Source: Candidatus Scalinduaceae bacterium
Lineage (GTDB): Bacteria > Planctomycetota > Brocadiia > Brocadiales > Scalinduaceae
Assembly: GCA_046759445.1 (NCBI GenBank)
Contig: JBHICG010000004.1
Location: 48,083-112,082 of the forward strand
Direction: 5' to 3'
DNA: 64,000 nucleotides
The position numbers were made by a program, and so were the translations under genes. Position 1 is the first letter of the stretch. The number at the start of each line of letters is the position of its first letter. Shown piece after piece: positions 865 to 53,947 of the stretch. The notes beneath the pieces are model-generated. The model was not told the DNA's origin. It saw only the letters and a list, made by a program, of their open reading frames with translations, and did not search any database.

Positions 865-1743
865 ATGTTTCGACTAATAGATATCCTGCACCTTCTCCGC
901 CCGCAAGAGTGGATTAAAAATACATTTGTTTTTGCCGCCCTAATTTTCTCCCAGCAGCTATTAAACGTAATGGATGTTCTGAAAGTGATTGGTGCGTTTG
1001 TGCTGTTCTGCATGGTATCAGGGGTAATTTACATTATAAATGATATCTTTGATCTGGAACATGATAGAGTACATCCGATAAAAAAGGATAGACCTCTTGC
1101 TTCGGGACGGATAAATATTTCCCTGGCCTGGCTCTTGGCCGTGATTCTGGTAGTGATATCTATGACCTTTTCATTTGCTCTTCAACCAAACTTCATGTTT
1201 GTTCTGGTGTTATATTTTCTGATTAATTTTGCTTATTCTCTTTATCTCAAAGGGATCGTTATTGTGGATGTTATGACTCTGGCTTTTGGTTTTGTTTTAA
1301 GGGCTATTGCTGGAGGCGTGGTGATACAGGTGCCGGTATCTTCATGGTTAATTGTCTGTACTGCTCTAATATCCCTGTTTTTAGGTTTTGGGAAAAGACG
1401 ACATGAGCTTATTTTACTAGATGAGGAAGCCGGCAATCATAGAAGTATTTTAAGGGAATACAGTCCCTATTTTTTAGACCAGATGATATCCGTAGTTACG
1501 GCTTCGTCGGTTATTGCTTATACCTTCTATACCATGTCCGAAGAGGTACAGGAAAAACTTCATACTCATTATCTTGGGCTTACGATCCCATTTGTTCTAT
1601 ACGGAATCTTTCGGTATCTTTACCTGGTACATCAAAAACAAGGTGGCGGGAATCCTGCTCAGGAACTTCTCGCAGACAGGCCCCTTCTTATCAATGGGAC
1701 ACTTTGGGTTCTTGCCGTAATAGTAATTCTTTATGATTGGTAA
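865..1743 (+). CDS. UbiA-family polyprenyl-phosphate phosphoribosyltransferase (DPPR synthase-like), copy 1
   Basis: LLRPQEWIKN start, YIINDIFDLEHDRVHPIKKDRPLASG motif, KRRHEL, multiple TM helices; typical of the Rv3806c-like subfamily. Confidence 0.88.
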   Translation: MFRLIDILHLLRPQEWIKNTFVFAALIFSQQLLNVMDVLKVIGAFVLFCMVSGVIYIINDIFDLEHDRVHPIKKDRPLASGRINISLAWLLAVILVVISMTFSFALQPNFMFVLVLYFLINFAYSLYLKGIVIVDVMTLAFGFVLRAIAGGVVIQVPVSSWLIVCTALISLFLGFGKRRHELILLDEEAGNHRSILREYSPYFLDQMISVVTASSVIAYTFYTMSEEVQEKLHTHYLGLTIPFVLYGIFRYLYLVHQKQGGGNPAQELLADRPLLINGTLWVLAVIVILYDW

Positions 1744-2833
1744 AAATATGACACGATCGATCGTTGTTGTTAAAAGAACAAAACCTGATACTGTTCTTTC
1801 TGATTTCGAGGAAATTATTCAGGCATCTGGTCTACTGGAGGCTTTAGACTCCTCCCGTGTTACAATTTTGAAGGACAATATTACATGGCATTTCCCTTTC
1901 TTAAGCGCTAATACTACTCCCTGGCAGTTGGAGGGGACCATTTTGGCTCTAAAAAATGCCGGCTTTAACAAACTTGTGGCCGTCCATAATAATACAGTTG
2001 TTACAAATCCTTATAAGGGAGGGATATTAAACAAGCTGACTCCCATCTACAAGAAATATGGCATCGAAGAAAGGTACAACTTCCTGCCTGAAGATATCAA
2101 ATGGATAACTTATAAACCGAAGGCAGAGATGCGAGTGCTTAATAATATTTACAAAAAAGGGATTAAAATTCCTGAATTTTTTATTGATAAAAATATTGTT
2201 CATCTACCCACCATGAAAACCCACATTTACACTCAGATCACAGGAGCTATGAAGAATGCCTTTGGTGGTTTACTTAACACCAGGCGTCACTATACACATA
2301 GTGTCATCCACGAGACGTTAGTTGACCTTTTGGCTATTCAAAAAGAAATTCATGCTGGAATATTTGCGGTGATGGATGGAACGATTTGTGGAAGTGGTCC
2401 CGGCCCGAGGACTATGCAGCCTGTAGAAAAGGATTATATTTTGGCCAGCTCAGACAGCGTAGCCATTGATGCCGTTTCTGCTAAGATGATGGGCTTTAAT
2501 CCCATGAAGATACCCTTCATACGTTTGGCGCATGAAGATGGACTAGGGAAAGGCAACCTGTCACAGATTGAAGTATCAGGAGAGGATATCTCAATGGTTA
2601 ATTTTGGGTTCCAGGTAGGGGATAATCTTGCAAGCCTTGTGGGCGATGCCTTCTGGTTCAGTCCTGCCAAAATGTTTCAGAGGCTTCTTTTTCACACTCC
2701 ATTGGTGTACGCCTTCGTGCTCGGATCATATATATACCATGATTATGTCTGGTGGCCCTTTAAGGGTAAAAGAAAAATGGCTGAAATCAGTGAAACCAAA
2801 TGGGGGAAATTATTTGCCTCATACGATAGTTAA
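1733..2833 (+). CDS. DUF362-family protein (start may be ATG 1748)
   Basis: LKDNITWH...NTTPWQLEG, HLPTMKTH..TQITGAMKNAFGGL, AVMDGTICGSGPGP, DSVAIDAV..KMMG motifs. Confidence 0.8.
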   Translation: MIGKNMTRSIVVVKRTKPDTVLSDFEEIIQASGLLEALDSSRVTILKDNITWHFPFLSANTTPWQLEGTILALKNAGFNKLVAVHNNTVVTNPYKGGILNKLTPIYKKYGIEERYNFLPEDIKWITYKPKAEMRVLNNIYKKGIKIPEFFIDKNIVHLPTMKTHIYTQITGAMKNAFGGLLNTRRHYTHSVIHETLVDLLAIQKEIHAGIFAVMDGTICGSGPGPRTMQPVEKDYILASSDSVAIDAVSAKMMGFNPMKIPFIRLAHEDGLGKGNLSQIEVSGEDISMVNFGFQVGDNLASLVGDAFWFSPAKMFQRLLFHTPLVYAFVLGSYIYHDYVWWPFKGKRKMAEISETKWGKLFASYDS

Positions 2834-4280: not shown

Positions 4281-5717
4281 TTGATTGATGAGATGAATAA
4301 ATACCTTATTATACTTTCTAGAGTTAAAAATCCCTTGGATCTTAGATTCAAGAAGGACGAAATTTATGGTTCATCTTTATTCAAGATTGTTGCCATTTTA
4401 TCCCTTGGATGTATGTTAGGGTTTGTGACATACAAATTAAAATATATTGCTCCTTTTCTCTTGTTGGGCGTTTTTGGTATAACATTAGCTGGCATCTATT
4501 CAGAAATCGGAATCGTTATTTTTCTCCTGATAATCAATCTCAGTTTCTTACAAGCTATGAATGTTCCTTATGTTAAATTGTCTTTCATAGGTTTTTTTGC
4601 CATGTGGTGGTTATATTTCCTTGGGAATAGATTGAAAATCACTCGTTCTAATCAGATGACCTTCCTCATGGTATTGTATATTTCGTTGTTTATATTGTCG
4701 TTCCTATCTGGTGGCAACTTTTTTGGTAAGATTGGTGGTGGGTTGAACTATTATTCTAATATGTTCTTTGCATTCGTGATCATGACCACGATCAGGGCAG
4801 AGGAACAGGTAAGGAAATTTTTGGATCTGTTAATTCTGTGGGGTGTTTTTCTGGCCGCTATTGGGGTTATTCAATTTGTTACAAAACGTCCCCTTTTCCC
4901 AGGAGCTGTTTCAGAAGGTGGTCTCCCGGTCACGGGGAGTACCATAGGCGATACTGTATTTTATGCCGTTCATATGCAATTTGTCATAATCTTGTGCTTT
5001 TACAAGCTATTGTATAAATATAATAACAAAGAAAAGATAGTTCCCATTCTTTTCGTCCTTATTTTATTAGTACTGGGTTGGGCCTTTAGTTTTAATAGAG
5101 TAACTATGGTTAGTTTTGTAGTGGCTATCTTTGTTATTGCTCATTTGCATGGTCAAAAAAAGAAAGCGTTATTGTTTTTGTTAATAGCCTTGATATTTAT
5201 ATATATATTTGCTCCCAGGTTTTTCTCTCAGATGTATAGCATTATTACTTCTATTTTGTATCCTGCAGGCACCCATTGGGAGGGTAGATTAAATCTTACC
5301 ATGGCTGGCTTGAAAGCAATTAAAGATTATCCGTTAGCTTTATTGACAGGATTTGGGCCAGGACAATACGTTAATGTAATCATGCCATATTTAACTCCAT
5401 GGCAAAAGTTGAATTTAGGAGGTACAGGTAGCATGTTTCCTGTCTATCTGTTGGTGGAGATTGGGATATTCGGAACGGCTTTATTTTTCTGGTTCATATG
5501 GTTAACACTCAAAGATCTTTTTAATGTACAAAAGTTGTTTGAACAACGCAAGAGACATGATATGTTTTTAATTACTCAGGGTTTATTTGTAGCTTTTATA
5601 AGCCTATTGATTACAAGTTTTACAGGCCCTCCTCACCTCTTTTTTGCCTTCTGGATACCCATTGCAATGGTAGCAGTTTTAAACAACTTGTGTCAGAAAA
5701 AGATGGCAAATCAATAG
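4281..5717 (+). CDS. O-antigen ligase/polymerase (WaaL/Wzy-like) family membrane protein (start may be ATG 4293)
   Basis: About 12 TM segments, SFNR motif, periplasmic loop GRLNLT...GFGPGQY, LLVEIGIFG. Confidence 0.75.
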   Translation: MIDEMNKYLIILSRVKNPLDLRFKKDEIYGSSLFKIVAILSLGCMLGFVTYKLKYIAPFLLLGVFGITLAGIYSEIGIVIFLLIINLSFLQAMNVPYVKLSFIGFFAMWWLYFLGNRLKITRSNQMTFLMVLYISLFILSFLSGGNFFGKIGGGLNYYSNMFFAFVIMTTIRAEEQVRKFLDLLILWGVFLAAIGVIQFVTKRPLFPGAVSEGGLPVTGSTIGDTVFYAVHMQFVIILCFYKLLYKYNNKEKIVPILFVLILLVLGWAFSFNRVTMVSFVVAIFVIAHLHGQKKKALLFLLIALIFIYIFAPRFFSQMYSIITSILYPAGTHWEGRLNLTMAGLKAIKDYPLALLTGFGPGQYVNVIMPYLTPWQKLNLGGTGSMFPVYLLVEIGIFGTALFFWFIWLTLKDLFNVQKLFEQRKRHDMFLITQGLFVAFISLLITSFTGPPHLFFAFWIPIAMVAVLNNLCQKKMANQ

Positions 5718-5835: not shown

Positions 5836-8175
5836 ATGAGTATGAGAATCAATAAGTTATCGATTATTGAGGATAAATGTCCTAATTTCTGGGTGATGGT
5901 TATTTTATTCCTTTTGCAGTTGATGTTGTTGTGGAGAATGATTTTTTTAAACCAGTTTCCTCTAGATTGGGACCTTATGGGGCAGATATATCCGTGGAGG
6001 GTTATCTCTGCCAAGATGATTAAGGATGGGATTATACCCTTGTGGAATCCTTATATTTTAAGCGGCACACCTCTCTTAGCCGATATGTTGAGCGGAGTAT
6101 TTTATCCCCTCAATCTTCTTTTTTTAATCCTGACGCCGTTTACGGCCATGAAGTTAAACTATTTTATACATTATTTTCTAATGGGAATCTTTACGTATTT
6201 TTTTTGTATATCTATTAAAATGGATAGATTCGGTGGATTGATTGCGGCCACTATTTTTCCCTTTAGTCTTTATGTCTTCTCTAGAGAGACTCTTGCTACA
6301 AATACTACTGTCCTGGCTTCAATAACCTGGTTGCCCCTTTTGTTTATGCTAGTCGAACGATTATTGGCAAAAAACAGGTTGACAATTTCAATGTTATTAG
6401 GGGTCGTCCTTGCTTTACAGTTTCTTGCCGGACATCCCCAAATTGCTTATTATTCAACGTTGTCTCTCATATTATATCTGGTTTTTAGGTGCTACAGTGA
6501 AAAAAGGGAGTGGCGTAAAATTCTTAAATCGTGTTTCCTTCTTGCCTTCGCTCTTTTTCTCGGCGTGTTTTTGTCTGCTGTTCAAATATTACCTACGATT
6601 GAGTTTACAACACTGAGTTACAGGGGATGGAATCAGGATGTACTTGGGGGCCTGGGTCCCAGCGACTTCTTTCGCCTGGGAGGGGTATATGTGGGTATAG
6701 TACCTCTAATACTGATTTTACCTTTACTCATATTCCAAAGGAATATGTATGCATTTTTTTTCTTTGCGCTTATCATTATAAGTTTTCTGGTAATGGTTGA
6801 ATTTACTCATTTTTCTTCTTTGTTATCTCGTATTATCCCCTTTTTCCGAACCTTTTATGGAGCAAATAGGGTAATTTTCCTCTATATCTTTTCTGTGTCT
6901 ATACTGGCTGGGATTGGAGTAAACACCTTGATAGAGAACTTTGATACAGAAAAAAAGGATTATCTGGCAAAACTCTGTAAGTTTATGGCATTTTTCAGCA
7001 TACTCCTAGTATTTGTCTTAGTTTTTGCCTATTGGGGGAGAGAAGTTATCTTTTCTTTGTCTTTAAAGGTGATTTCAAATATTACGAGTTCTGCTGAAAC
7101 TAGCGAAAAATTATATAAAATTCACTCATCTTTTATCTCCTTAATGTGGTTTTCGCTCTCGGTCATCATTCTTAGTATGGCCCTCGTATTTCTTCGATTA
7201 AGAAATAAGTTCGGTAATCACTTATTTATGGCAGGTATTTTGTTGCTTGTCCTGGCCGTCCTTTTGATACAAGAAAAACCAACTAATGTTGACTTAAGAG
7301 TATATTTTGAGAAAACTGAGGCGACTAAATTTTTAAAAAACCACAATAAATATCAACGAATAGATGCCATTGACCCAAAATATGTTATAGATAGGCCACA
7401 ATTAAACTTTTTCGTTCCTAATATTAACAGTATACACAATATTTACGGGATCCGCGGATATACCCCACTTCATATGTCTTATTATCTGGAATTTATAGAC
7501 CTGATAAATGGAGCTGGAGTGGATTCATCTCTTTATAGGAGTGGAGAGAAAAAGCGTTTTTTATGGGTAGACAACTTTAAGTCTAAATTAGTTGACCTAT
7601 TAAATGTCAGATATATAGTTACCAGTAAAGGAATAAAAGATCCACAATTTAATCTTGTCTATGCAGATGATATTAAAATCTACGAAAATAAAAATGTGCT
7701 TGAAAGAGCATTTATGGTATACGATTATAAAGTAATTAAAGACAAACAAGGAATTTTGTCAGAACTTGGGAGTGATGATTTTAATCCCAGAAAGGTGGTA
7801 ATACTGGAAAGAGAACCTCAAAAAGTTTTGAAGAATGAAGGTGATTTATCAGTATCACAACTCGATAGCGTTGACATAATTACCTATCTTCCCAATGAGG
7901 TAGTTATTCAGACTGAATCGGATAGGGGTGGATTCTTAGTATTGGGTGATACTTATTATCCAGGTTGGAAGGTGTTTGTGGATAGGAATGAAGACGTAAT
8001 ATATAAAGCGAACTACATCTTGAGAGGTGTATACTTAGATGAAGGGTCCCATACCATTAAGTTTATCTATGATCCCATTTCTTTTAAGTTAGGATGGATT
8101 GTAAGCTTGACAACATTGGTTGGCATATCGCTATTTTTCCTGTGTTGCATCTGGCCTTTGAGGTTAGAGAGGTAA
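5836..8175 (+). CDS. YfhO-family GT-C membrane glycosyltransferase
   Basis: PLWNPYILSGTPLLAD, LAGHPQ, AVQILPT; C-terminal GFLVLGDTYYPGWKVFVD...ANYILRGV...Y.P.SF. Confidence 0.85.
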   Translation: MSMRINKLSIIEDKCPNFWVMVILFLLQLMLLWRMIFLNQFPLDWDLMGQIYPWRVISAKMIKDGIIPLWNPYILSGTPLLADMLSGVFYPLNLLFLILTPFTAMKLNYFIHYFLMGIFTYFFCISIKMDRFGGLIAATIFPFSLYVFSRETLATNTTVLASITWLPLLFMLVERLLAKNRLTISMLLGVVLALQFLAGHPQIAYYSTLSLILYLVFRCYSEKREWRKILKSCFLLAFALFLGVFLSAVQILPTIEFTTLSYRGWNQDVLGGLGPSDFFRLGGVYVGIVPLILILPLLIFQRNMYAFFFFALIIISFLVMVEFTHFSSLLSRIIPFFRTFYGANRVIFLYIFSVSILAGIGVNTLIENFDTEKKDYLAKLCKFMAFFSILLVFVLVFAYWGREVIFSLSLKVISNITSSAETSEKLYKIHSSFISLMWFSLSVIILSMALVFLRLRNKFGNHLFMAGILLLVLAVLLIQEKPTNVDLRVYFEKTEATKFLKNHNKYQRIDAIDPKYVIDRPQLNFFVPNINSIHNIYGIRGYTPLHMSYYLEFIDLINGAGVDSSLYRSGEKKRFLWVDNFKSKLVDLLNVRYIVTSKGIKDPQFNLVYADDIKIYENKNVLERAFMVYDYKVIKDKQGILSELGSDDFNPRKVVILEREPQKVLKNEGDLSVSQLDSVDIITYLPNEVVIQTESDRGGFLVLGDTYYPGWKVFVDRNEDVIYKANYILRGVYLDEGSHTIKFIYDPISFKLGWIVSLTTLVGISLFFLCCIWPLRLER

Positions 8176-8281: not shown

Positions 8282-9223
8282 ATGAATATTTTGCCATACT
8301 TAAAGGTAATGCGCATCGATCATTACCACAAGAATGTTTTTGTAATTGTTGGTATTGTCGTATTCTTTAAGGTCGCTGATGCAAAAATAGACATACCCCT
8401 TTTATTCAAACTTTTTGGGGCAATACTCATTGCTTGTATTGCATCATCCTTTAATTATATTATAAACGAATTACTAGATTCGGACTCAGATAAATTTCAT
8501 CCGAAAAAAAAACATAGGCCTGTTCCATCAGGAGATACCAACATATATGTTGTTTTAACTATAAGCGTCTGTATTTTATTGGTTACTTTATGTTTAAGCT
8601 TCTTCTACTACAGCATGTATTTTTTTATAACACTAATTTTGTTTTTCCTTTTAGCAATTCTATATAATGTGCCGCCCCTTCGGTTTAAGGATGTTGTATA
8701 CATGGATGTAGTAATTGAATCAGCTAATGCCCCCATTAGAATATTATTGGGTTGGTATGCAATTGGGACGAATATGCTTCCAAAATTATCAGTTCTGGTA
8801 TCGGTTTGGTGTCTAGGTGGTTTTCTTATGACGGCAAAACGATATGCTGAGCATAAATTTATATCAAATGACTCTGACAGGGGCATGTATAGAAGGTCTT
8901 ATAACACTTATACAAGTGAAATATTGTCTACTTATATGGTTTTCTGGCTTATCCTTTTCAATTTTGCATTTGGTATATTTATTGTACGTATAGAACCCGC
9001 AACATTAGTAGTATCTCCATTTTTAATAACTTTTTTTATCTGGTATTGGTGGTTATCGACGAAACCCGATTCTATAGTTAAAGAGCCAGAAAGGGTCTTT
9101 GAAGAAAAGGGATTTTTTGTTTATTCGGTATTTCTTTCAATCCTTTTTGGTGTCGTTTTTTTATTCGGCAGTGAAATTCCCTTGATTGATTATATTCACC
9201 ATCGCTATCTTTTCCCCAAATAA
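8282..9223 (+). CDS. UbiA-family polyprenyl-phosphate phosphoribosyltransferase, copy 2 (divergent subfamily)
   Basis: MRIDHYHKN, NYIINELLDSDSDKFHPKKKHRPVPSG, YNVPPLRFKD, ESANAPIR, KRYAE. Confidence 0.82.
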   Translation: MNILPYLKVMRIDHYHKNVFVIVGIVVFFKVADAKIDIPLLFKLFGAILIACIASSFNYIINELLDSDSDKFHPKKKHRPVPSGDTNIYVVLTISVCILLVTLCLSFFYYSMYFFITLILFFLLAILYNVPPLRFKDVVYMDVVIESANAPIRILLGWYAIGTNMLPKLSVLVSVWCLGGFLMTAKRYAEHKFISNDSDRGMYRRSYNTYTSEILSTYMVFWLILFNFAFGIFIVRIEPATLVVSPFLITFFIWYWWLSTKPDSIVKEPERVFEEKGFFVYSVFLSILFGVVFLFGSEIPLIDYIHHRYLFPK

Positions 9224-33875: not shown

Positions 33876-33879
33876 AATT

Positions 33880-42041: not shown

Positions 42042-42049
42042 GCAAAATT

Positions 42050-43156: not shown

Positions 43157-43847
43157 ACCAGAGTTATCCATCGTAATCCCTCTTTTTAATGAAGAAAGAA
43201 ATGTTGAGGTAGTAACAAAAGAACTTGTTGCAGAACTCGAAGTAAATGAAATAACTTATGAGTTAATACTCGTAGATAATGGTTCTTTTGATAGAACATC
43301 AAGGATAATAGAGGAATTAGTTGATGAAAACCCTAGAATAAAACCAATTTATTTATCTCAAAATCAAGGTTATGGAGGAGGGATTCTGGCTGGGCTGAGT
43401 GAATGTAATGGAAGGTATATAGGTTATATGTGGGGAGATAGGCAGGTAGTTGCCAAGGATGTTATAAGGATATTTAAGAAACTTAAAGACGAGGGATTAG
43501 ATTTATGTAAATCTATTCGCATCGAGCGCCATGATGGACTGAAAAGAAAGATTATTACGAAGGCATACAATTTTATATTCCCCTTTTTCTTTAGTGTATC
43601 TTCGAGGGACATAAACGGTTGTCCGAAGATGTTCAAAAGCGAACGTTTCTACGAACTCAATATTACATTGAGGGACTGGTTTATAGACCCGGAGATAATG
43701 GTTAAATCTCAAAAGAGGAATTTCAAGATCGGTGAGGTACCTGTGATCTTTTATAGTAGGAATCACGGATCTTCAAATGTTAGATTATGTACTGTTTTCG
43801 AATTCATTAAGAATATGATTTATTTTAAATTTAAAGGGATATTATGA
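43146..43847 (+). CDS. GT2, DPM-synthase-like (start revised to ATG 43146)
   Basis: IVIPLFNEE, VDNGSFD, NQGYGGG, WGDRQ, DINGCPK, DPE, EVPV.F..R..G.S. Confidence 0.82.
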   Translation: MSLKPELSIVIPLFNEERNVEVVTKELVAELEVNEITYELILVDNGSFDRTSRIIEELVDENPRIKPIYLSQNQGYGGGILAGLSECNGRYIGYMWGDRQVVAKDVIRIFKKLKDEGLDLCKSIRIERHDGLKRKIITKAYNFIFPFFFSVSSRDINGCPKMFKSERFYELNITLRDWFIDPEIMVKSQKRNFKIGEVPVIFYSRNHGSSNVRLCTVFEFIKNMIYFKFKGIL

Positions 43848-45268: not shown

Positions 45269-45653
45269 GTTGATTAAATTAGACAAGAAGGAAGATCATA
45301 GAGGATGGTTTCTAAAGATATTGATGAATCATCAAATCGAAGGGAAAAGAGAGTTTGGAGAGATATATTTGAGTACTGCGTACCCTGGAGAAACAAAAGG
45401 GAATCACTATCATAATTTTGCAACTGAGTGGTTTTGCCTAATCAAAGGAAAAGCGATTCTTTCGTTAATGGACATAAAAACTAAACAGAAAGAGAATATA
45501 ATGCTTGGAGAAGAGATTCCTATGACAATAGAAGTATCTCCACAGATTGCCCATTCAGTAAAAAATCAAGGAGAAGATTCGTTGTTTCTTCTCGCTTACT
45601 CTGATACGCCATATGATCAACAGAACGCTGATAGTATCCCCTTCTCATTATAA
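45255..45653 (+). CDS. Cupin sugar isomerase/epimerase (WxcM/CapF-C-like)
   Basis: DHRGWF, PGETKGNHYH..ATEWF, IAHSV cupin motifs. Confidence 0.78.
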   Translation: MKGVRLIKLDKKEDHRGWFLKILMNHQIEGKREFGEIYLSTAYPGETKGNHYHNFATEWFCLIKGKAILSLMDIKTKQKENIMLGEEIPMTIEVSPQIAHSVKNQGEDSLFLLAYSDTPYDQQNADSIPFSL

Positions 45654-45673
45654 ATTTTTCTTACAAACCTCCT

Positions 45674-46642
45674 ATGATATCTGTAATTGTTCCAGTTTAT
45701 AATGGAGAGAAGACAATTGAGAGTTGTATAAAATCTCTCCAGAATCAGTCCTGTCCCAATGAAACGTATGAGATTATAGTTGTTGATGATGGTTCTACAG
45801 ACAGTTCACCTAATATCTTAGAAGGATTAGGCATTAGGTTTATTACTCAGCCAAATAGAGGGCCAGCAACAGCAAGGAACAGAGGTGCTCAAATAGCGAA
45901 AGGCAATATCCTGCTCTTTACGGATGCGGATTGCGTTGCTGATAAAAGATGGATAGAAGAGATGGTTAGACCTTTTAGTAATCCTGAGATAGTCGGTGTA
46001 AAAGGTTCGTACAAGACTTTACAAAAGGAGCTAATTGCCAGATTTGCGCAAGCCGAGTTTGAAGAGAGATATCGACTACAAAAGAGATTTGAATTTATAG
46101 ACTTTGTTGATTCGTATTCGGCAGGTTTCAGGAAGGATGTCTTTTTTGAAATTGGTGGATTTGATGAAAGTTTTCCATTACCTGACCATGAGGATGTTGA
46201 TCTATCTTATAGGCTTTCCAGAGCTGGAAAGAAGATGGTTTTCAATCCAAAGGCATTTATATATCATCAGCATCCAAACAGTTTGATAAGGTATTTAAGG
46301 ATAAAGTTTCGGCGAGCTTTTTGGAGAATGGTCGTTTATAAGAGATATCCAGAAAAAATATTGAAAGACACATACACACCCCCGAATTTAAAATTTCAGG
46401 TATTGTTTTTCTATTGTATTATATTTTCTTTTTTAGGAGCCTTTTTTAGTTATTATTTTGTATGTATTTTTATAATTGCTCTTCTTCTGTTTTTTTTTAC
46501 AACTATAAATTTTACATTAATTATCCTTAAAGATGATATGCGAGTAGGCCTTTTAGCTCCAGTTTTCCTCTTTTTGCGGGCATCTGCCCTTGGTTTTGGT
46601 ATAATCTATGGGGTAGTTTTCTGGAAGAATCGTATTACTTAG
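45674..46642 (+). CDS. GT2 glycosyltransferase with C-terminal TM helices
   Basis: VIVPVYN, VVDDGSTD, GPATARN, FTDADC, GGFDE, EDVDLSYR. Confidence 0.9.
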   Translation: MISVIVPVYNGEKTIESCIKSLQNQSCPNETYEIIVVDDGSTDSSPNILEGLGIRFITQPNRGPATARNRGAQIAKGNILLFTDADCVADKRWIEEMVRPFSNPEIVGVKGSYKTLQKELIARFAQAEFEERYRLQKRFEFIDFVDSYSAGFRKDVFFEIGGFDESFPLPDHEDVDLSYRLSRAGKKMVFNPKAFIYHQHPNSLIRYLRIKFRRAFWRMVVYKRYPEKILKDTYTPPNLKFQVLFFYCIIFSFLGAFFSYYFVCIFIIALLLFFFTTINFTLIILKDDMRVGLLAPVFLFLRASALGFGIIYGVVFWKNRIT

Positions 46643-46645
46643 TGG

Positions 46646-46778
46646 TAAATACGGTGACGTATTTTAACTGTCATGATATTGAGACTCTTCACTTCGTTTA
46701 GAGTGACAGGCGCTGTCATTCTGAGGATCGAAGTGACGAAGAATCTCTTGCTCGAAAGACAATACGTAACCGTATTTA
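46646..46778. repeat. MITE-like element with 18-bp terminal inverted repeats and internal TGTCATT REPs
   Basis: TAAATACGGTGACGTATT ... AATACGTAACCGTATTTA (1 mismatch); internal GAGACTCTTCAC...AGAGTGACA and TGTCATTCTGAG...GAAGAATCTC. Confidence 0.68.
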
Positions 46779-46851
46779 TGAAATGTAGTACTTAGTTTTT
46801 GTTACTGAAAATATTTATAAATATTTTCTATTTTTTGGTGAGATTATTTCA

Positions 46852-48291
46852 ATGATAAATAAAAAAAAATGTATTTCCTGTATGGTCTTCATCTTGTTTG
46901 ATGTCTTTGGTGTCTATTCAGCCGTTTATCTAACTTACTATTTAAGGATCCTTTTAAATCCTTTATTTACCTTAAACTTTTCCATTGAGAATATAAGTGA
47001 TTACTTTATCAATCCTTTCATTGTAATTATCATATGGGTTATTGTTTCAACACAAAGCGGCTTGTATGATCTGAAAAACATCGGTTCTTTTAAAAATTGG
47101 ATAAAAACACTAAATGCCAGCTTTATTACTTTAGTTTTTTTAATAACCATTTCATTTATACTCAAAAAAGAAGAGATATCTAGATCGTTAATAATTTTAT
47201 TTATTTTTTTTAATATAATATCTGTCAGCTTCTTTCGTTTTTTAGGTTGTAAAGTATTATCATGGTTTAAGGAAAAAGGGGTTTGGGGTGAGAGGGTTGC
47301 CATAATTGGGGAGAATATACATGTCACAGAAATAGCTCATCTTCTGAGAAAAAGAGGGCGTTTAGGAACTATATTTAGTGGTCACATTACTTTAAATTCA
47401 AAAAAACTCAATTTGCCACAGAATTTTGACAGTGAACTTGTTTTGGGTAGTATTGACGATGTAGAAAGTATAGTGAGAAAACATAATATTAATAGAGTAA
47501 TATTTGTTGATAAATCTCTATCAGAGGAGAAGCTGTTTCCTTTAATTGAGTTCTGTGAAAAACTTAATGTTACCTTTGAGATCTTGCCAGATCTCTATAA
47601 TCTTACAGCAAGTAAGATAAATGATGAGATAGAAGGGATTCCCTTAATACAACTTAGAGGATTTCACTTACCAAGAAGTGTTCTTTTAGTTAAAAGAACA
47701 CTCGAAACCACGATTAGTTTAATATTATGCATTTTATTGTTACCTTTTCTTATATTGGTACCTGTTTTGATAAAGTTAGAATCTAAAGGGTCAATGATCT
47801 TTAGACAAAAGCGCTATGGGAAAAATGGAATGATTTTCACATTTTATAAGTTCAGATCTATGGCCGAGGATGCTTATGTTAAAAGGACTGATCTAAAGGA
47901 GTATAATGAAAAGGGTGATTTTATTTTTAAGATCAAAGATGATCCCAGAATTACTAAAGTTGGTCGATTTATTAGGAGGTATAGCCTGGATGAATTACCA
48001 CAGTTATTTAACATTCTTAAAGGTGAGATGAGCCTGGTAGGACCAAGACCCCTTCCTGTTGAAGACTTGATTGATATAGAAAAGAGTAAATATAAGAGTT
48101 GGTTCAAATATAGATCGCAGTTACCACCAGGCCTCACAGGACTTTGGCAAGTAAGTGGAAGAAGTGAATCAGAGTTTGAAGATTTAGTTAAGGATGATCT
48201 CTATTATATTCAAAACTGGACTCTTTCGATGGATATAATGATAATCTTAAAGACATTCTATGTTGTTATTAGAGGATATGGGGCTTATTGA
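46852..48291 (+). CDS. Initiating polyprenyl-phosphate hexose-1-phosphate transferase (WcaJ/WbaP/CpsE family)
   Basis: N-terminal TMs, KFRSM, DPRITKVGRFIRRYSLDELPQLFNILKGEMSLVGPRP, PGLTGLWQVSGRS. Confidence 0.93.
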   Translation: MINKKKCISCMVFILFDVFGVYSAVYLTYYLRILLNPLFTLNFSIENISDYFINPFIVIIIWVIVSTQSGLYDLKNIGSFKNWIKTLNASFITLVFLITISFILKKEEISRSLIILFIFFNIISVSFFRFLGCKVLSWFKEKGVWGERVAIIGENIHVTEIAHLLRKRGRLGTIFSGHITLNSKKLNLPQNFDSELVLGSIDDVESIVRKHNINRVIFVDKSLSEEKLFPLIEFCEKLNVTFEILPDLYNLTASKINDEIEGIPLIQLRGFHLPRSVLLVKRTLETTISLILCILLLPFLILVPVLIKLESKGSMIFRQKRYGKNGMIFTFYKFRSMAEDAYVKRTDLKEYNEKGDFIFKIKDDPRITKVGRFIRRYSLDELPQLFNILKGEMSLVGPRPLPVEDLIDIEKSKYKSWFKYRSQLPPGLTGLWQVSGRSESEFEDLVKDDLYYIQNWTLSMDIMIILKTFYVVIRGYGAY

Positions 48292-49149
48292 ATTTTACAC
48301 ACCCTAAAACCGGGGGTGCATCGTGAATAGGTTTTGTGGGAGAAAATATGAAGATGATACTTAGAAATCTAATTTTGAAGCCTCAAAAACAATATAAAAG
48401 GGCTTGCCTATTGAAGGTATGCAAAAATATACTAAGCTGCAAGATCAATTCCTTATGATAACTAAATATATTTCCATAGGAACGATCTATTAACCATTCT
48501 CATACCATCATATACTAAGAGAAGATTTATCGTTGTTTGCATTGAAATCTATGAAAACAATCCTGAATACACAATTATTTAAACGGAGATGAATGGTTCT
48601 TAAAAATAATTTTCTGGGTGTTGTCAAGCGTATTCAAGCTATGAAATCAGCGAAAAATTTACAAACTGGACAAAAGGGAAAATTTAAAAAAAGAAATACA
48701 AGAAATTTAATCGGTGAAGCGACAATTAAGATACAACGCAAGAGACAAAATCATTATATAGTATATTCAAAGAGATTGGTAAAATTTTAATGAAACAAAA
48801 AAAGAAAAAGATATCACAAATTTACAACTATGGATATTTTACATTGACTGGATTGTTTTGAGTGAACTGTGATAAGAAAAGATGCTAGTAATAGGTTATA
48901 GTACATCTTGTCAAGTTTAAAAATAATTGCGAGAAAAGTAAAAAAGGATAAGAATTTTTCGAAGCTCATCGAAAGTATTGAGAGGAAATTGTCAATATGA
49001 AACAGGTTTTCTGGGTATAGGTGTTTTATAGAATGTTGCACCCATAAAACCTATGTTTTCAGCGCTTGGGTTTTTACATTTTGAGTTCTAAGATAGGCCT
49101 GAAAGGTTTTAATCTCCTTCACACTACACACTATGCTTTAGATTTTTTC

Positions 49150-52100
49150 ATGATAAACAAAATAGGATATTATCTTCTTATATTAACAGCATATATTGTC
49201 TTAAGCTTGATATTTACCTGTCCTCTCGGTCTCCATATTTCAACCCACCTCCCATCGGTAGTTGATCCCAAAATATCTGGCCAAGGTGATATATGGAATT
49301 ATCTATGGATGTTCTGGCAGTTCAAAAAGAGTTTACTTATGGGTAAAGGTATACCATTTTATACAACGGATGTCTTTTATCCTCAGGGGATAGAACTTCC
49401 TACTGCCTATGTGTTAACTTATTATTCCATGATTTATATGCCATTAAAAGAGATGTTTAATCCCGTTGCTGCTTGGAATCTACTAATTTTGTCAGCATTT
49501 GTTTTCTCTGGATTTGGGATGTATCTTTTGTGTTATTACTTAACGGGCAGCAGAATCGCATCTTTTATCGGTGGGATAATCTTTGCCTTTAGCCCCTATC
49601 ATTTAGCACGTGCTGATGCTGCTCACATAACGCTTTTGTCATCTCAATGGGTACCTTTGTATACCTTATTCCTGTTACGCACAATACGAGAATCAAGTTG
49701 GAAAAATCCTTTACTGGCGGCTGCCTTCCTGTTTTTGTCATGTATATCTTCAATCTATTACACAGTAATGCTTTTTATGATAACAGGATTTTTGCTGACT
49801 TATTACTTAATTTATCAAAGAAATTTGTTATTCTCGGTTGTCTTCATTAAAAGGCTCCTACTGGTTATTTTCTGTGTCTTTCTAACTTTACTTGTCTTTG
49901 TTTTTCCTCTTTTTACGCTGAGACATTCTTTTGGATATGTCTATACACCACTCAATGACCCACACAGAATGGGGGTAGATTTATTATCATTTTTCTTGCC
50001 AAGTGTATTTCACCCTATTTTTGGAAAATATGTGGTACTCTTTAATAAATATTTTCCTAGAAATTTTGAAGAAGGGGTTGTTTATGTTGGTTATTGTGCC
50101 TTGGTACTATCTTTTTTTGCAATTTGGCATAGGACAAAAGACAGAGATATTCGATTATGGGCGTTTTTGGCTTTAATCTTTTTCTTGTTAACGATGGGTT
50201 CCTACTTTTCTATAGGAGGGATTAGTGAATTTCACTTGGGGGGTTATCATTTTAAGATACCCTTGCCGTATTTCCTTATGCAATATATCCCTATCATAAA
50301 AGGAATACGAGCTCCTATACGATTCGATCTATTCTTAATGCTTTCTATTGCTATTCTATCAAGTTTTGGATTCAGGTTTCTTATTCAAATGTTAAGGATA
50401 AACCGATTCCAGAAGGTTGTCTTAATAACATCTGTCATTTCTATTATCCTTTTGGAGTATAATACTTTACCCCTTCGCACGAAAAAGATTGAAATTCCCA
50501 CAATTTATAACATGCTGGCAGAAGAGAAAGGGGACTTTTCTATTTTAGAACTACCTTGCTATGGTGATAACCAACAGATATTTCAATATTACCAGACCAT
50601 ACATGGTAAAAAGTTACTATTTGGTCATACTGCAAGGATTCCAAGGCATTTATTATTTAAAAAGCAAGAGGATAGGATAATAAGGTCGCTTACATATCCA
50701 AATCTCATAGATAAACCTGAGGAGATCCTTCGATACAGCTATCTATTTGATAGCTTGATTCATTTTAACCATATCTATTATGTACTCATTCATAAGAAAT
50801 ATTTGTCACAAAGAGATTATGAAAAGATTAACAGGATTGTTCAAGAAGGAATGAGTGAAAGGAAGTTTTATGAGGATGAAGATGTAGTTGTTTATAAGAC
50901 GAGGGAGGTAAATGAGAATAGAATACTCAAATATAAAAGCAGGGGATGGTCGTGGCTTGAAGAAAATATAGTTGCGAAAATTGACTTTGGAAAGAATGAT
51001 GAATCCATAAAAATGGAGGGTTATAGCTTTGTCGAGCTGATGGGAGGTAACAAGACTAATTTCACATTTCGGTGGTCAGTTGGAGATAGTTCAATTGTGT
51101 ACGTACCGATTGAATATCCTGATTATTATATCTTATATCTTAATCTCAGGCCATTTACTTATAAGGGGGCTCCCCAACAGACGTTAAAGGTTTATATAAA
51201 TGGGAAGTTTAATTCTGAAATATACATACATCCGCCTGGTAAAAGGGTTTTTGATGATTATGCGGTAGAGACTGATTCAAGATTATGGAAGAAGGGAATA
51301 AACAAAATAGAATTCCGTTATGGTTATACGGCTAAACCTGTTGATGTTATAGATTCGAAAGATCATCGCCCCTTATCCGTGGCATTTACGTGGATGCATA
51401 TCAAGCACAGGTATTTAGACTATAACTGGTCTGACGGAAAGGAATCAGAACTGATTGTCAAATTCCCTGATCAACAAAAGGATTACACAATGTTTCTAGG
51501 GCTTGTGCCGTTTGATTTTTGGGATGGGGAAAAACAAAAGATAAAGGTATATATGAATGATAAATTTTTAAGAGAAATCGAGCTTTCAAATGGCTTTAGT
51601 GAATATCAAGTTAGAATACCTAATACCTATATAATACAAGGAAATAACAAAATTCGGTTTAGCTATGCTCGTCTTAATAACAGAAGATATATTAACAGAG
51701 TAGCGTTCTATTATATAAAATTTGATAATGATGGCGAAATGGTGGATAATGTTTATCGTCTTAATCCTTCGAATGATGAGTTTATCCATTTTATAAGTGG
51801 ATGGAGCCCTCTTAGGGACATAGATAGAAAATCGATTAGTTGGCAAACTAAAAACAGGGGAATTATTGTGATTCAAAATCCTGGTAAGGACGCTTTATTA
51901 AAATTTAAGGGTTATACTAGGTTAAAAAATAATAGAGACAGACAGAATATACACCTTTATATTGCTGATGTTAGGGTAGATACATTTGATTACAATGAAT
52001 TTAATAAGTGTTATTTTCTTCCACAATCTATTTTTAATGGAGCTAGAAGCATTTTAGCAACTTTTGTTCTGGAACATCCTGTGGATGCAAGTGGGTTACA

Positions 52101-53007
52101 GGGGTTATTTATCGAAGAAATAAACGTAATATCCGATAGTGATGAGATTGTATTAGGCAATGGCTGGTACCGTGAGGAAAAAGGTAGAGTTAGTAGAAAA
52201 TGGAGGTGGATAGGAAAAGGTGCTCAAAGTTATTTAAAAAAACATAAGGATGACGTAATGTTAAGAGTAGAAGGAAAAACAAATATTGAATATTTCAATA
52301 GACCGTTAAAAGTGGTTATATCTTTAGCTGATAAAGTAATAGATGAATTTATATTAACAAAGTACATTAGCAATTTTTCGAAAGCTTATATTTTAGATGA
52401 CGATCTTTCAAATGGTGATTGGCACGAATTAATAATTGAGACAGACCAGACCTTTATACCCGATGAGGTTTTACATAACGGTGATAAGCGAGAGTTGGCC
52501 TTGATGATTACGAATATTAACTTAGGTGATGTTAATAAAAACCGTAAGGATTTGATGATAGAAGAGGCGAAAAACGTCAAGCAAGAAAAAATTATATTTG
52601 GCATAGGTTGGTACCCTGAAGAAAAAAGTGAAGATGGCAAAAAATACAGGAGATGGATGTGGGAAAGAGCCGTGTGCTACATCAAAAACCTTAAAAGGAA
52701 TATGGTCGTTAATATCGAGGGGACGACAAGTGTTAGATTTTTCAAAAAACCTATAAAAGTAATTATATATTTGTCTGATAAAAAAATAGATGAATTTATT
52801 TTGCCGACTAAAGTCTTTTCAAAAGTAAAATCGAAGTTAACGGGAAGGCTTTTTTCAAAGACATATAATATAAATAATTCTCATGAGGATGGTGAATGGC
52901 ACGAATTAATAATTGAGACAGACCAGACCTTTATACCAGACGAGGTTTTACATAACGGTGATAAGCGAGAGTTAGCCTTGATGATTACGAATATTAGTGT
53001 CAAATAA
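49150..53007 (+). CDS. Very large YfhO-like GT-C glycosyltransferase with tandem extracellular beta-sandwich domains (start revised to ATG 49150)
   Basis: GD.W.YLW, FYPQG, FAFSPYH, DLLSFFLP, YVGY, IRAPIRF, YYQTIHGK; C-terminal repeats with GW..E....RW. Confidence 0.75.
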   Translation: MINKIGYYLLILTAYIVLSLIFTCPLGLHISTHLPSVVDPKISGQGDIWNYLWMFWQFKKSLLMGKGIPFYTTDVFYPQGIELPTAYVLTYYSMIYMPLKEMFNPVAAWNLLILSAFVFSGFGMYLLCYYLTGSRIASFIGGIIFAFSPYHLARADAAHITLLSSQWVPLYTLFLLRTIRESSWKNPLLAAAFLFLSCISSIYYTVMLFMITGFLLTYYLIYQRNLLFSVVFIKRLLLVIFCVFLTLLVFVFPLFTLRHSFGYVYTPLNDPHRMGVDLLSFFLPSVFHPIFGKYVVLFNKYFPRNFEEGVVYVGYCALVLSFFAIWHRTKDRDIRLWAFLALIFFLLTMGSYFSIGGISEFHLGGYHFKIPLPYFLMQYIPIIKGIRAPIRFDLFLMLSIAILSSFGFRFLIQMLRINRFQKVVLITSVISIILLEYNTLPLRTKKIEIPTIYNMLAEEKGDFSILELPCYGDNQQIFQYYQTIHGKKLLFGHTARIPRHLLFKKQEDRIIRSLTYPNLIDKPEEILRYSYLFDSLIHFNHIYYVLIHKKYLSQRDYEKINRIVQEGMSERKFYEDEDVVVYKTREVNENRILKYKSRGWSWLEENIVAKIDFGKNDESIKMEGYSFVELMGGNKTNFTFRWSVGDSSIVYVPIEYPDYYILYLNLRPFTYKGAPQQTLKVYINGKFNSEIYIHPPGKRVFDDYAVETDSRLWKKGINKIEFRYGYTAKPVDVIDSKDHRPLSVAFTWMHIKHRYLDYNWSDGKESELIVKFPDQQKDYTMFLGLVPFDFWDGEKQKIKVYMNDKFLREIELSNGFSEYQVRIPNTYIIQGNNKIRFSYARLNNRRYINRVAFYYIKFDNDGEMVDNVYRLNPSNDEFIHFISGWSPLRDIDRKSISWQTKNRGIIVIQNPGKDALLKFKGYTRLKNNRDRQNIHLYIADVRVDTFDYNEFNKCYFLPQSIFNGARSILATFVLEHPVDASGLQGLFIEEINVISDSDEIVLGNGWYREEKGRVSRKWRWIGKGAQSYLKKHKDDVMLRVEGKTNIEYFNRPLKVVISLADKVIDEFILTKYISNFSKAYILDDDLSNGDWHELIIETDQTFIPDEVLHNGDKRELALMITNINLGDVNKNRKDLMIEEAKNVKQEKIIFGIGWYPEEKSEDGKKYRRWMWERAVCYIKNLKRNMVVNIEGTTSVRFFKKPIKVIIYLSDKKIDEFILPTKVFSKVKSKLTGRLFSKTYNINNSHEDGEWHELIIETDQTFIPDEVLHNGDKRELALMITNISVK
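52420..52996 (+). repeat. 100-bp direct repeat inside the large GT-C gene (52420-52519 and 52897-52996)
   Basis: Both copies encode WHELIIETDQTFIPDEVLHNGDKRELALMITNI; 3 differences, all synonymous. Confidence 0.9.
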
Positions 53008-53947
53008 TTTTATGGAAACAGATCAAATAGATTATTCTATTACTATACCCGTTTACAACAGCGAAAGAAGCCTTCCAGAGCTAATTAAGCGCCTGGCACA
53101 AGTGATGGACAAAATTGGTCAACCATACGAGATTCTCCTCGTAAACGATGCCTCATTGGACAAATCCTGGCAAGTGATCAGACAGCTCAAAGAAAGGTAC
53201 CCTCAGATTAGGGCCTTCAATTTGATGAACAATGTTGGTCAGTTCAGGGCCCTGATGTGTGCCTTTGATTATGTGAGGGGGGAGTATGTGATTACGATGG
53301 ATGATGATCTGCAACAACCCCCTGAAGAGATTACCAAATTGATTAAGGTTATTAAGACTAGCCCTGATCTGGATTGTGTTTTTGGAATTCCACAAGAAAA
53401 GCACCACCACTATTATCGTAACTTAGGTACACTCTTAATCAGATATATTAACTATAAGGTTTTTGATAAACCAAAGGGGTTAAAAACCTCCAGTTTTCGC
53501 GTATTCAAGCGTTACATTAATGACACATTGGTTCAGTATAAAACCCGTAATCCCGTTCTTAACCCATTAATTATTAGAAGTACGAAATGTATTGCAAATG
53601 TTACTGTAGAACATTGTGAGCGTAAGTATGGGACTTCAGGTTATAGTTTATCACGTTTGATCAAGACTACATTTGATAACGTACTTAATTTTTCAACCCT
53701 ACCTCTAAAGTTTGTGAGTGGTTTAGGCCTCGTAGCCTCTCTGGGAAGTATACTTCTCACAGTGTTCTATGCAGTTCGTTATTTTCAAGGAGCTATAAAA
53801 GTACCTGGTTGGGTTACATTGGTCTTATTACTGACCTTTTTCTCTGGTTTGAATCTCTTTTCTATAGGTTTGGTTGGGGAATATCTGATCAGGATTATTA
53901 GGGAGGTTAACCATTCTCCACTATATGTAGTTAAAGACAAATTATAA
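52997..53947 (+). CDS. ArnC/GtrB-like GT2 undecaprenyl-phosphate glycosyltransferase (start may be ATG 53012)
   Basis: IPVYNSE, VNDASLD, NVGQ, TMDDDLQQPPEEI, SSFR, HCERKYG.SGY, two C-terminal TMs, GEYL.R. Confidence 0.88.
   Translation: MSNNFMETDQIDYSITIPVYNSERSLPELIKRLAQVMDKIGQPYEILLVNDASLDKSWQVIRQLKERYPQIRAFNLMNNVGQFRALMCAFDYVRGEYVITMDDDLQQPPEEITKLIKVIKTSPDLDCVFGIPQEKHHHYYRNLGTLLIRYINYKVFDKPKGLKTSSFRVFKRYINDTLVQYKTRNPVLNPLIIRSTKCIANVTVEHCERKYGTSGYSLSRLIKTTFDNVLNFSTLPLKFVSGLGLVASLGSILLTVFYAVRYFQGAIKVPGWVTLVLLLTFFSGLNLFSIGLVGEYLIRIIREVNHSPLYVVKDKL

Follow-up and report, generated by a model that had tools for sequence, protein, structure and literature searches.

The established pathway for pentofuranose glycosylation combines a UbiA-family synthase, a flippase and a GT-C glycosyltransferase, with or without an epimerase of the short-chain dehydrogenase/reductase (SDR) type that acts on undecaprenyl-phosphate-ribose before it is flipped (Kelly et al. 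2024, PMC11127046, in its accessible sections). In Citrobacter youngae O1/O2 these components are the PPPRS ORF15, the MATE flippase ORF14, the GT-C ORF12, which is a GT136 enzyme, and the SDR epimerase ORF13; the same sections argue that epimerization after transfer to the lipid, by ORF13, avoids disturbing a shared precursor pool (PMC11127046). Here we describe a locus at positions 865-53947 of a 64,000-nucleotide stretch of DNA (the window) from a Candidatus Scalinduaceae bacterium, in which components of this kind are interleaved with genes for radical S-adenosylmethionine (SAM) enzymes. The window is G000:C4:48083-112082, that is, part of contig C4 of a draft genome that comprises 3.62 Mb in 145 contigs. 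This genome has a match close to the cut-off for TIGR04072, a family associated with anammox (310.7 versus 360 bits), whereas 14 control genomes have none. The UbiA and GT-C part of the locus, with its SDR epimerase, is not new, being the three-component pentofuranose logic. The new part, a view that we hold with moderate confidence, is a radical SAM tailoring step added to multi-component extracytoplasmic glycosylation. The pairing of radical SAM with GT-C genes itself recurs in unrelated anaerobes, and no studied counterpart of it was found.

Both the three-component pentofuranose systems and the mycobacterial DPPR synthase-DprE1-DprE2-Emb-Aft pathway resemble the locus in that a UbiA phosphoribosyltransferase (gene 865, which exceeds the cut-off for this function; genes are named here by their first nucleotide) is encoded together with GT-Cs. 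An SDR (11680) in the second UbiA arm and a logic of post-polymerization, extracytoplasmic decoration are further points of likeness. The window differs, however, in that two radical SAM genes lie between the UbiA gene and the SDR, the first UbiA gene is coupled instead to a DUF362 protein, the flippase that was recognized is of the Wzx type rather than MATE or SMR, and no DprE1 was found among its 44 open reading frames (ORFs), the search being confined to the window. In the GtrA/GtrB/GtrC, ArnC/ArnE-F/ArnT, CsbB/GtcA/YfhO and Ppm1/Pmt systems the likeness is the combination of a GT2 gene resembling polyprenyl-phosphate-sugar synthases with a GT-C of the PMT_2 or YfhO type, and the product of 52997 aligns over its full length to ArnC. 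In contrast with these systems, the window places a radical SAM gene between the synthase and the GT-C or overlapping them, and holds up to nine GT-C genes in one island.

Among characterized radical SAM enzymes AprD4 (apramycin C3'-deoxygenation, PDB 6FD2, with the reductase AprD3) is the best or second-best solved relative of all four large radical SAM proteins of the window. AprD4 does not bind cobalamin (PMC12931638, in its accessible part), and 25388 is like it in having an N-terminal Rossmann-like region without a recognizable B12 motif; it differs in its score (137 versus 500 bits), in its surface-glycan context rather than an aminoglycoside cluster, and in having no AprD3-like partner adjacent. 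HpnJ (hopanoid cyclitol-ether formation) and Cds (calditol synthase) are proposed to edit a membrane-lipid-bound sugar, and are thus a precedent for such editing by radical SAM enzymes (PMC13459092, in its accessible part); for 18600, 25388 and 32457 no NCBIfam match ranks above HpnJ, but their scores fall far below its cut-off. The class B radical SAM C-methyltransferases (GenK, Fms7, TokK and QCMT, PDB 9CCB, a glutamine C-methyltransferase according to the accessible part of PMC12931638) share with 18600, 32457 and 33880 the order of the B12-binding and radical SAM domains, whereas no cut-off is reached by the window enzymes. None of the functionally assigned class B members in the accessible part of a 2026 review comes from a surface-glycan pathway.

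An earlier note on this stretch, made from the sequence alone, knew of no characterized surface-glycan pathway built in this way. This holds for the radical SAM component, as no paper that links radical SAM enzymes with GT-Cs or with three-component glycosylation was found in a search that left most subscription journals, and supplements too, outside its scope; it does not hold for UbiA plus GT-C, with or without an SDR, which was already known (PMC11127046, in its accessible sections). Papers that name radical SAM enzymes concern aminoglycosides, mycofactocin, lipids or ladderanes, besides three on genomes or transcriptomes that use the term once or twice. The word 'undecaprenyl' is absent from a 2026 review of lipid-modifying radical SAM enzymes, as are 'glycan', 'polysaccharide' and 'sugar' from the main text of a 2026 review of B12-type radical SAM enzymes.

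Gene families of the island

Pfam and NCBIfam scans of 44 window ORFs place eight radical SAM genes, eight PMT_2-type GT-C genes and one of the YfhO type, two UbiA genes and five GT2 genes, the fifth (45674) missing from the earlier list, between 865 and 53947. These 53 kb hold 8 of the 72 radical SAM matches in the genome, where about 1.05 would be expected (Poisson P ~1.5e-5), and 8 of its 13 PMT_2 matches (~0.19 expected; P ~3.6e-11), both P values presupposing a uniform scatter of genes. Paralogues within the island are 22-36% identical (alignments of at least 88 residues), and are thus old rather than recent duplicates. The layout on one strand with overlapping genes, noticed from the outset, is borne out: the plus strand holds 43 of the 45 window ORFs of at least 150 residues, and the pairs 865/1733, 20249/22105, 25388/26800, 31377/32457 (abutting), 33880/35402, 37494/38834, 42050/43122 and 49066/52997 overlap or abut. 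One minus-strand exception, a 161-residue ORF at 23369-23854, overlaps the start of the amidotransferase gene 23465 and is probably spurious; the other is a GT4 gene at 60414-61607.

All eight genes that had been called radical SAM carry the Pfam Radical_SAM domain with the CX3CX2C motif intact, and none of the products has a predicted transmembrane segment or signal sequence. A B12-binding domain accompanies the CX3CX2C core in 18600, 32457 and 33880; 25388, the fourth supposed B12-type enzyme, gave no B12-binding domain match in the Pfam scan and loses that label. The other four had been assigned to the SPASM/twitch type, in agreement with a SPASM domain (PF13186) above cut-off in 31377 and 40965 and with C-terminal cysteine clusters, although without a SPASM domain match, in 9537 and 10632. 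Cysteines C257, C276, C312, C315 and C319 of 9537 are invariant among 17 family members, and 10632 has five C-terminal cysteines.

No radical SAM protein of the eight reaches the cut-off of any curated NCBIfam family, so that the heme, cofactor, hopanoid and RiPP (peptide made on ribosomes and modified after translation) families have no member among them. The expectation that these enzymes would fall outside established non-glycan clades, those for lipids included, is therefore mostly upheld. Matches below cut-off are to the PTO1314 family (TIGR03961, cut-off 306; 9537 at 164 and 10632 at 122 bits), AprD4 (NF033070, cut-off 500; 25388 at 137 bits) and HpnJ (TIGR03471, cut-off 577.6; 18600 at 216, 32457 at 202 and 25388 at 165 bits), and neither shc nor any hpn core gene turned up in the Pfam scan of the window. 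By sequence, AprD4 is the first solved relative of 25388 (E 6.9e-32 to 6FD2, core only), 18600 and 33880, and the second of 32457, for which QCMT (9CCB) ranks first (E 1.6e-25). BlsE is first for 9537 both by sequence and by fold (7VOB; Foldseek of an AF2 model with pLDDT 89.9), but as SuiB, SkfB, MoaA, anSME and viperin rank close behind it, the fold does not decide the chemistry of this enzyme. AprD4 is a sugar diol-dehydratase and BlsE a cytosylglucuronate decarboxylase.

Nine of the ten GT-Cs first listed are retained, eight of the PMT_2 type and 5836 of the YfhO type. All PMT_2-type proteins are polytopic (6-13 predicted transmembrane segments) and are retrieved by a profile iterated from 14693. 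Six of the eight (14693, 16091, 20249, 26800, 35402 and 37494) score above the Pfam cut-off for PMT_2 (PF13231); 12624 falls just under it (25.0 versus 26.1 bits) but exceeds that of the NCBIfam LA_3751/LA_3752 family (209.7 versus 200), and 38834 lies under both the Pfam and the NCBIfam cut-offs (E 5.8e-5 and 7.8e-11). In 5836 the YfhO match, although above cut-off, is confined to the C-terminal 80 residues. The tenth candidate, 49066, is unverified as a GT-C: it has no Pfam match, its hhalign comparison with the GT-C profile of the window (26% probability) is unusable, and a resemblance to DUF6311 (score 0.98) comes from language-model features alone.

The donor synthases fared less evenly, only one of the six originally named exceeding a curated cut-off. 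The UbiA protein 865 scores 308 bits (cut-off 234) against NF008977, the decaprenyl-phosphate phosphoribosyltransferase family, aligns full-length with the solved Mycobacterium tuberculosis enzyme (PDB 8J8J, E 1.3e-39, residues 7-285) and has an NDxxDxxxD motif at residue 59. Its relative 8282 is a UbiA protein by Pfam (75.8 bits) but reaches only 94 bits against NF008977, and a pattern search found no NDxxD in it. The GT2 proteins 17885, 22105, 43122 and 52997 best match AglJ, PpgS, ArnC or PgfS; 52997 scores 179 bits against ArnC (cut-off 529). About two transmembrane segments are predicted in each of 22105 and 52997, and none in 17885 and 43122.

Radical SAM clades beside glycan genes in other genomes

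The families described above cluster in the island, and the adjacency of radical SAM genes to GT2, GT-C and UbiA genes recurs elsewhere. The tallies that follow were made from six-frame ORFs with home-made, uncurated profiles, and are thus lower bounds; the gene calls in GC-rich loci are crude. As background, in the genome of the window but outside it, 3.6% of ORFs have a GT2 at a distance of up to 3 kb and 0.4% a GT-C; among the 43 radical SAM-like ORFs outside the window in the same genome, 8 have a GT2 neighbour within 3 kb (further loci on contigs C3, C20 and C23).

Orthologues of 18600 occur in 7 of 300 other Planctomycetota genomes (E at most 1e-75) and, with up to 45% identity, in 19 of 201 genomes of the phylum of genome G416. 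Of 21 loci of this clade, 14, spread over two phyla (11/15 in the phylum of G416 and 3/6 in Planctomycetota), have a GT2 resembling dolichyl-phosphate-hexose synthase within 3 kb, and 7 (5/15 and 2/6, respectively) have a GT-C profile match within that distance. In two genomes of another anammox genus (loci L243 and L244) the GT2 (223-225 bits to 22105) overlaps the B12-type radical SAM gene. A PMT_2-type GT-C bearing a PA14 domain follows directly downstream in L243, while in L244 the next genes encode a methyltransferase and a membrane protein with PA14, the PA14-bearing PMT_2 GT-C lying beyond them on the opposite strand; shikimate and leucine genes border the GT2 side of these units, which contain no nucleotide-sugar genes. 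A GT2 and B12-type radical SAM pair with a GT-C near is found not only in L243 and L244 but also in L241, L274, L275, L276, L284 and L285.

The clade of 25388 comprises 27 orthologues with 34-46% identity, none of them from the order to which the window belongs; the best match within that order is ~31% identical. Of the 20 loci examined, 10 have a GT-C within 3 kb, a distance that shrinks to 100 bp or less in 9; a GT9 is adjacent in 11, and LpxB or LpxA in 2. One planctomycete family has, gene-calling gaps aside, a fixed operon in seven loci (L036 and L045-L050), complete in five of them; Pfam leaves the GT9 or the GT-C uncalled in L036, L047 and L050. The operon consists, in this order, of an N-methyl pilin-like gene, an FG-GAP gene, a B12-type radical SAM gene (35-37% identical to 32457), a GT9, an AprD4-like radical SAM gene, a PMT_2 GT-C, once fused to FG-GAP repeats, and a second FG-GAP gene. 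Orthologues of 33880 are present in 10 of 400 other genomes; within 3 kb of them are a GT-C in three of nine loci, a GT2 in two and a GT4 in two, with at least one of these in six.

The family of 9537 is rare, with 19 clusters at 33% identity or above among 5.8 billion proteins. A UbiA gene lies within 5 kb of its members in three of three informative loci, two of them archaeal, a fourth orthologue being left out as its contig is too short to judge. These are a Methanosarcinales metagenome-assembled genome (L051), in which the order is UbiA, PAP2 phosphatase and 9537-type radical SAM gene, a Parvarchaeota one (L052), and a metagenome contig (L130) with a radical SAM gene, a GMC oxidoreductase and a UbiA (184 bits to 8282) beside five polytopic proteins of 500-600 residues. 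Pattern scans with the 9537 alignment gave 79 and 80 loci, of which 5 showed at least 36% identity; the rest, mostly at 22-32%, were not counted as orthologues and served only for the side observations on Thermoplasmatota and on loci with several radical SAM genes. Homologues of 10632 (195-238 bits) occur in L058 and L153, two loci surveyed on account of other genes, which hold several radical SAM genes together with glycosyltransferase genes.

The linkage that the earlier note predicted between radical SAM clades and GT-C or donor-synthase genes in unrelated genomes was thus, for the most part, found for the 18600, 25388, 33880 and 9537 clades; 31377 has no orthologue in 195 genomes, and 40965 has three weak homologues there, two of them (one genus) beside a GT4. 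The suggestion that each module carries a radical SAM modification was consequently an overstatement, the more so as the linkage of 10632 and 32457 comes from loci of other genes. Nor is one GT-C clade the steady partner that had been expected, as the GT-C beside an orthologue usually belongs, by phmmer labels, to a clade other than that of the window partner.

The DUF362 protein, which has a single cysteine, shows a linkage of its own. In 5 of 15 loci with DUF362 orthologues (L257, L258, L260, L262 and L265) the gene directly upstream is a UbiA orthologue, the two forming an overlapping conserved pair, and in 2 of 15 a GT-C is next to the DUF362 gene (directly downstream in L262, beside it in L267). 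The protein may be an unrecognized auxiliary enzyme of pentofuranose systems.

Several further loci came to light in these surveys. In another genus of the same family (L252; G405:C139) an orthologue of 865 (251 bits) is followed by a B12-type radical SAM gene (228 bits to 18600) and a gene for a 517-residue protein with seven transmembrane segments. AsnB-type amidotransferases stand beside B12-type radical SAM genes in L241, L274 and L281 (262, 313 and 530 bits to 23465), the last two from a phylum other than that of the window, a recurrence that hints at amidated uronic acids in the same chemistry. In Thermoplasmatota a PTO1314-like radical SAM gene (75-82 bits to 9537) is followed by a GT4 (L072, L079-L082, L150, L151, L156-L159 and others), with a GT-C profile match ~1-2 kb further on in at least 12 loci; the PTO1314 family, named but uncharacterized, looks glycan-linked too. 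Two loci, L085 and L090 (the latter from Desulfobacter vibrioformis), hold five to six radical SAM genes, including strong homologues of 33880 (273-310 bits), in the company of type I phosphodiesterase/sulfatase-like proteins, methyltransferases and a cytidylyltransferase, with a GT9 in L085. The genome of the window has other loci with radical SAM and glycosyltransferase genes at C3:104-114 kb, C20:15-38 kb, C23:7-14 kb and C40:7.3-9.4 kb. In the C3 locus a paralogue of 32457 (386 bits) is flanked by two GT2 genes with a PMT_2 gene near, in C20 B12-type radical SAM genes lie next to GT2, GT4 and GT9 genes, and in C40 a radical SAM gene adjoins a GT9.

A proposed lipid-linked substrate and its alternatives

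We propose, as a plausible reading that is about evenly poised, that the island is a Wzx/Wzy-type surface-glycan locus in which known modules of multi-component extracytoplasmic glycosylation have gained a radical SAM tailoring step. A synthase at the cytoplasmic face, either a GT2 of the dolichyl-phosphate-hexose-synthase/ArnC type or a UbiA phosphoribosyltransferase, would charge polyprenyl phosphate with a single sugar. Once on the lipid, this sugar would be tailored without oxygen by a soluble radical SAM enzyme, the donor would be flipped, and a GT-C would move its sugar onto a glycan or surface protein. Beside the modules, an initiating phosphoglycosyltransferase, GT4 and GT2 enzymes, the Wzx protein and the Wzy-like protein would form a conventional arm. 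The lipid-linked substrate, the chemistry of each enzyme and the acceptor are what we infer. Guessing from the nearest relatives, the likely reactions would be C-methylation for the enzymes with a B12-binding domain, deoxygenation for the AprD4-like 25388, and oxidation/epimerization or a related rearrangement for 9537 and 10632 with the SDR 11680. Ring contraction of the HpnJ/Cds type was considered for the B12 enzymes and ranked low; as it would remove the anomeric centre that the GT-C needs, it is unlikely here.

It could be argued that the radical SAM enzymes instead tailor soluble nucleotide sugars, or precursors derived from phosphoribosyl pyrophosphate, before any lipid is attached, like AprD4, GenK, DesII and BlsE, and that the GT2, UbiA and GT-C proteins merely use the products. 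We regard this as rather unlikely, although their closest characterized relatives do work on soluble sugars, and DegT/WecE aminotransferases and 4,6-dehydratase-like SDRs are present in many of the loci. The 25388 clade is steadiest beside GT9, GT4 Leloir-type transferases and a PurF-like amidotransferase; GT9, its steadiest neighbour, is a cytoplasmic Leloir enzyme and fits nucleotide-sugar chemistry as well. A lipid-linked substrate is favoured by the compact GT2/B12-type radical SAM/GT-C units of L243 and L244, which lack nucleotide-sugar genes and in which the GT2 and radical SAM genes overlap, and by the overlaps of radical SAM with GT-C genes in the window (25388/26800 and 33880/35402). 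It is also favoured by the argument given for ORF13, by which a segregated lipid-linked pool would spare central sugar pools (Kelly et al., PMC11127046, in its accessible sections), and by the precedent of HpnJ and Cds. That precedent (PMC13459092, in its accessible part) may also suggest that the enzymes act late, on a sugar already on its final lipid or on the polymer, as HpnJ does on hopanoid-glucosamine and calditol synthase on glycosyl-GDGT, the product being a modified glycolipid head group or an edited glycan. The ranking of HpnJ as best NCBIfam match of three of the window enzymes, and weak HpnA-, HpnB- and HpnL-like matches in the window, are consistent with late action, but all the Hpn matches are far under their cut-offs. 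Moreover, enzymes that have no transmembrane segment or signal sequence and depend on a cytoplasmic reductant cannot reach a polymer outside the membrane, and the Wzx protein, the Wzy-like protein and the initiating transferase are typical of polymer synthesis, so that we consider late action improbable.

More remote still is a role in chemistry other than that of glycans (RiPPs, cofactors, heme, ladderanes or lipid tails of another kind), the genes having simply accumulated in the island as accessory ones. Such a role would suit a genome rich in radical SAM matches, an island that is absent at this site in two genomes of the same genus, and SPASM/twitch enzymes, which are often peptide maturases (SkfB, SuiB and PqqE are among the matches). 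Against it stand the failure of every enzyme to reach the cut-off of any such family, the tight overlaps of radical SAM with GT-C genes, and the position of the same clades beside GT2, GT-C or UbiA genes in other phyla, far above the background frequencies. The RiPP version was set aside, as ORF and domain scans of the window showed neither a precursor peptide nor an RRE domain, and no set of peptidase or exporter genes.

It should be emphasized, however, that several observations weigh against the proposed tailoring of lipid-linked sugars. The evidence presented here does not separate a lipid-linked from a nucleotide-sugar substrate. Every GT2 match that suggests a donor synthase falls below the curated equivalog cut-offs, which also distinguishes the window from the Gtr and Arn systems. 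No phosphoribose phosphatase (HAD PRP or PAP2 domain) was found among the 44 window ORFs, the search being window-only, a further departure from the pentofuranose systems; and PF04138, the GtrA-family flippase of the Gtr system, has 0 matches genome-wide, although the same search was positive in 8 of 14 control genomes. One Wzx (29983) and one flippase-like protein (57291) would thus serve about six donor synthases. To these points belong the steadiness of GT9 beside the 25388 clade and the absence of a GT-C within 3 kb in 10 of its 20 loci, the missing or weak relatives of 31377 and 40965, and the GT-C partners that differ in clade from one genome to another. Related genomes in the tallies are, in addition, not independent samples.

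A wider possibility, which we put forward tentatively, is that extracytoplasmic glycosylation in anaerobes regularly has a fourth component, the radical SAM enzymes, which would edit the polyprenyl-phosphate-monosaccharide by C-methylation, deoxygenation or epimerization before the GT-C acts. Under this possibility the UbiA/radical SAM/radical SAM/SDR/GT-C arm would do without oxygen and flavin what the DprE1/DprE2 route does, converting polyprenyl-phosphate-ribose into another pentofuranose. The B12-type enzymes would likewise explain why the S-layer glycans of anammox bacteria are heavily methylated, a feature that so far lacks an explanation; in the S-layer O-glycan of Kuenenia six sugars carry up to five methyl groups, and no genes have been assigned (PMC5088730, in its accessible part). 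If so, a whole layer of lipid-carrier sugar chemistry has escaped notice because its hosts are anaerobes that have not been cultured, namely anammox bacteria, the phylum of G416, and DPANN and Thermoplasmatota archaea. The reading would provide gene candidates for the methylated S-layer glycans that shape the biofilms and granules used in wastewater treatment, oxygen-free routes to rare sugars for glycoengineering, and a first physiological context for several large, unnamed radical SAM clades. The compact GT2/B12-type radical SAM/GT-C unit is small enough for direct testing.

Gene map and accessory nature of the island

The glycan locus continues past 53947 to about 61.6 kb with WecD/WecE-like amino-sugar genes (Table 1). 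The initiating transferase 46852 is of the WbaP type (TIGR03025, 396 bits versus a cut-off of 296). Matches in the stretch beyond 54009 include NF008687 (594 bits, cut-off 375) and TIGR00374 (78 bits, cut-off 43), the latter being the flippase-like protein at 57291.

Table 1. Genes and modules of the window (TM, predicted transmembrane segments; rSAM, radical SAM).
Feature	Coordinates	Strand	Evidence
UbiA-family polyprenyl-phosphate phosphoribosyltransferase, DPPR-synthase type, 8 TM	865..1743	+	NF008977, PDB 8J8J, NDxxDxxxD
DUF362 protein, 11-nt overlap with UbiA	1733..2833	+	Pfam PF04015
Wzy_C-type polymerase/ligase-like membrane protein, ~10 TM	4281..5717	+	PF04932 40.6 bits
YfhO-type GT-C-like membrane protein, ~12 TM	5836..8175	+	PF09586 44.5 bits, C-terminal match only
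Divergent UbiA-family protein	8282..9223	+	PF01040 75.8 bits; best match DPPR synthase, below cut-off
Twitch/SPASM-like rSAM, rare family, PTO1314-like below cut-off	9537..10562	+	
Second twitch/SPASM-like rSAM	10632..11669	+	
Extended SDR, epimerase/reductase-like	11680..12594	+	Pfam Epimerase, 3Beta_HSD; GxxGxxG at residue 12; YxxxK at 94, 128, 138
Three PMT_2-type GT-C genes	12624-14681, 14693-16006, 16091-17794	+	6-13 TM
Module GT2 (17885) / B12-type rSAM (18600) / GT-C (20249) / GT2 (22105)	17885..22968	+	
Module AsnB-type amidotransferase (23465) / AprD4-like rSAM without B12 domain (25388) / GT-C (26800, 1 nt shared) / GT4 (28622)	23465..29788	+	
AsnB-type amidotransferase gene	23465-25360	+	
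Wzx-type flippase (29983) / SPASM rSAM (31377) / B12-type rSAM (32457) / B12-type rSAM (33880) / GT-C (35402, 8-nt overlap)	29983..36679	+	
Stand-alone 112-residue secreted protein, a fervidolysin-type subtilase prodomain, between two GT-C genes	37006-37344		73.8 bits
GT-C (37494) / GT-C (38834) / SPASM rSAM (40965) / GT4 (42050) / GT2 (43122)	37494..43847	+	
Conventional arm: 4,6-dehydratase-like SDR, cupin FdtA-like (45255-45653), GT2 (45674), initiating phosphoglycosyltransferase (46852)	44291..48291	+	
1313-residue membrane protein (at least 8 TM, then ~840 residues outside) overlapping ArnC/PgfS-like GT2 (52997)	49066..53947	+	
WecD-like acyltransferase, adenylate-forming ligase, SDR, flippase-like protein, methyltransferase, WecE-type aminotransferase, GT4 (minus strand)	54009..61607		

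The island is accessory and strain-specific. Searched as DNA against 20 relatives, 8282-28200 showed no conservation of coding stretches; the exceptions were weak matches to the gene for the amidotransferase and a dispersed repeat present in two copies. Two genomes of the same genus have no radical SAM/GT-C island, and no GT-C, in the 50-60 kb downstream of their deoB orthologue, where there is one weak radical SAM match, ~40 kb off. The repeat, palindromic and ~158 bp long, occupies two intergenic gaps (9313-9470; 22973-23130 and 23312-23364), with ~47 BLAST matches per copy in this genome and many in genomes of the same genus and family.

Contigs from two RNA libraries of another study match 865-20800 at 95-100% identity, covering 26 and 27 of its 30 bins, which indicates that a near-identical locus exists elsewhere. 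This locus is probably transcribed, if on weak support, as DNA carry-over could explain the contigs too. They pile up at the palindromic repeat (depth 250 in X3), where a joint skips 9334-9448. At the far end of the window, a subtilase that carries the same fervidolysin-type prodomain as the stand-alone 112-residue protein begins at 62527.

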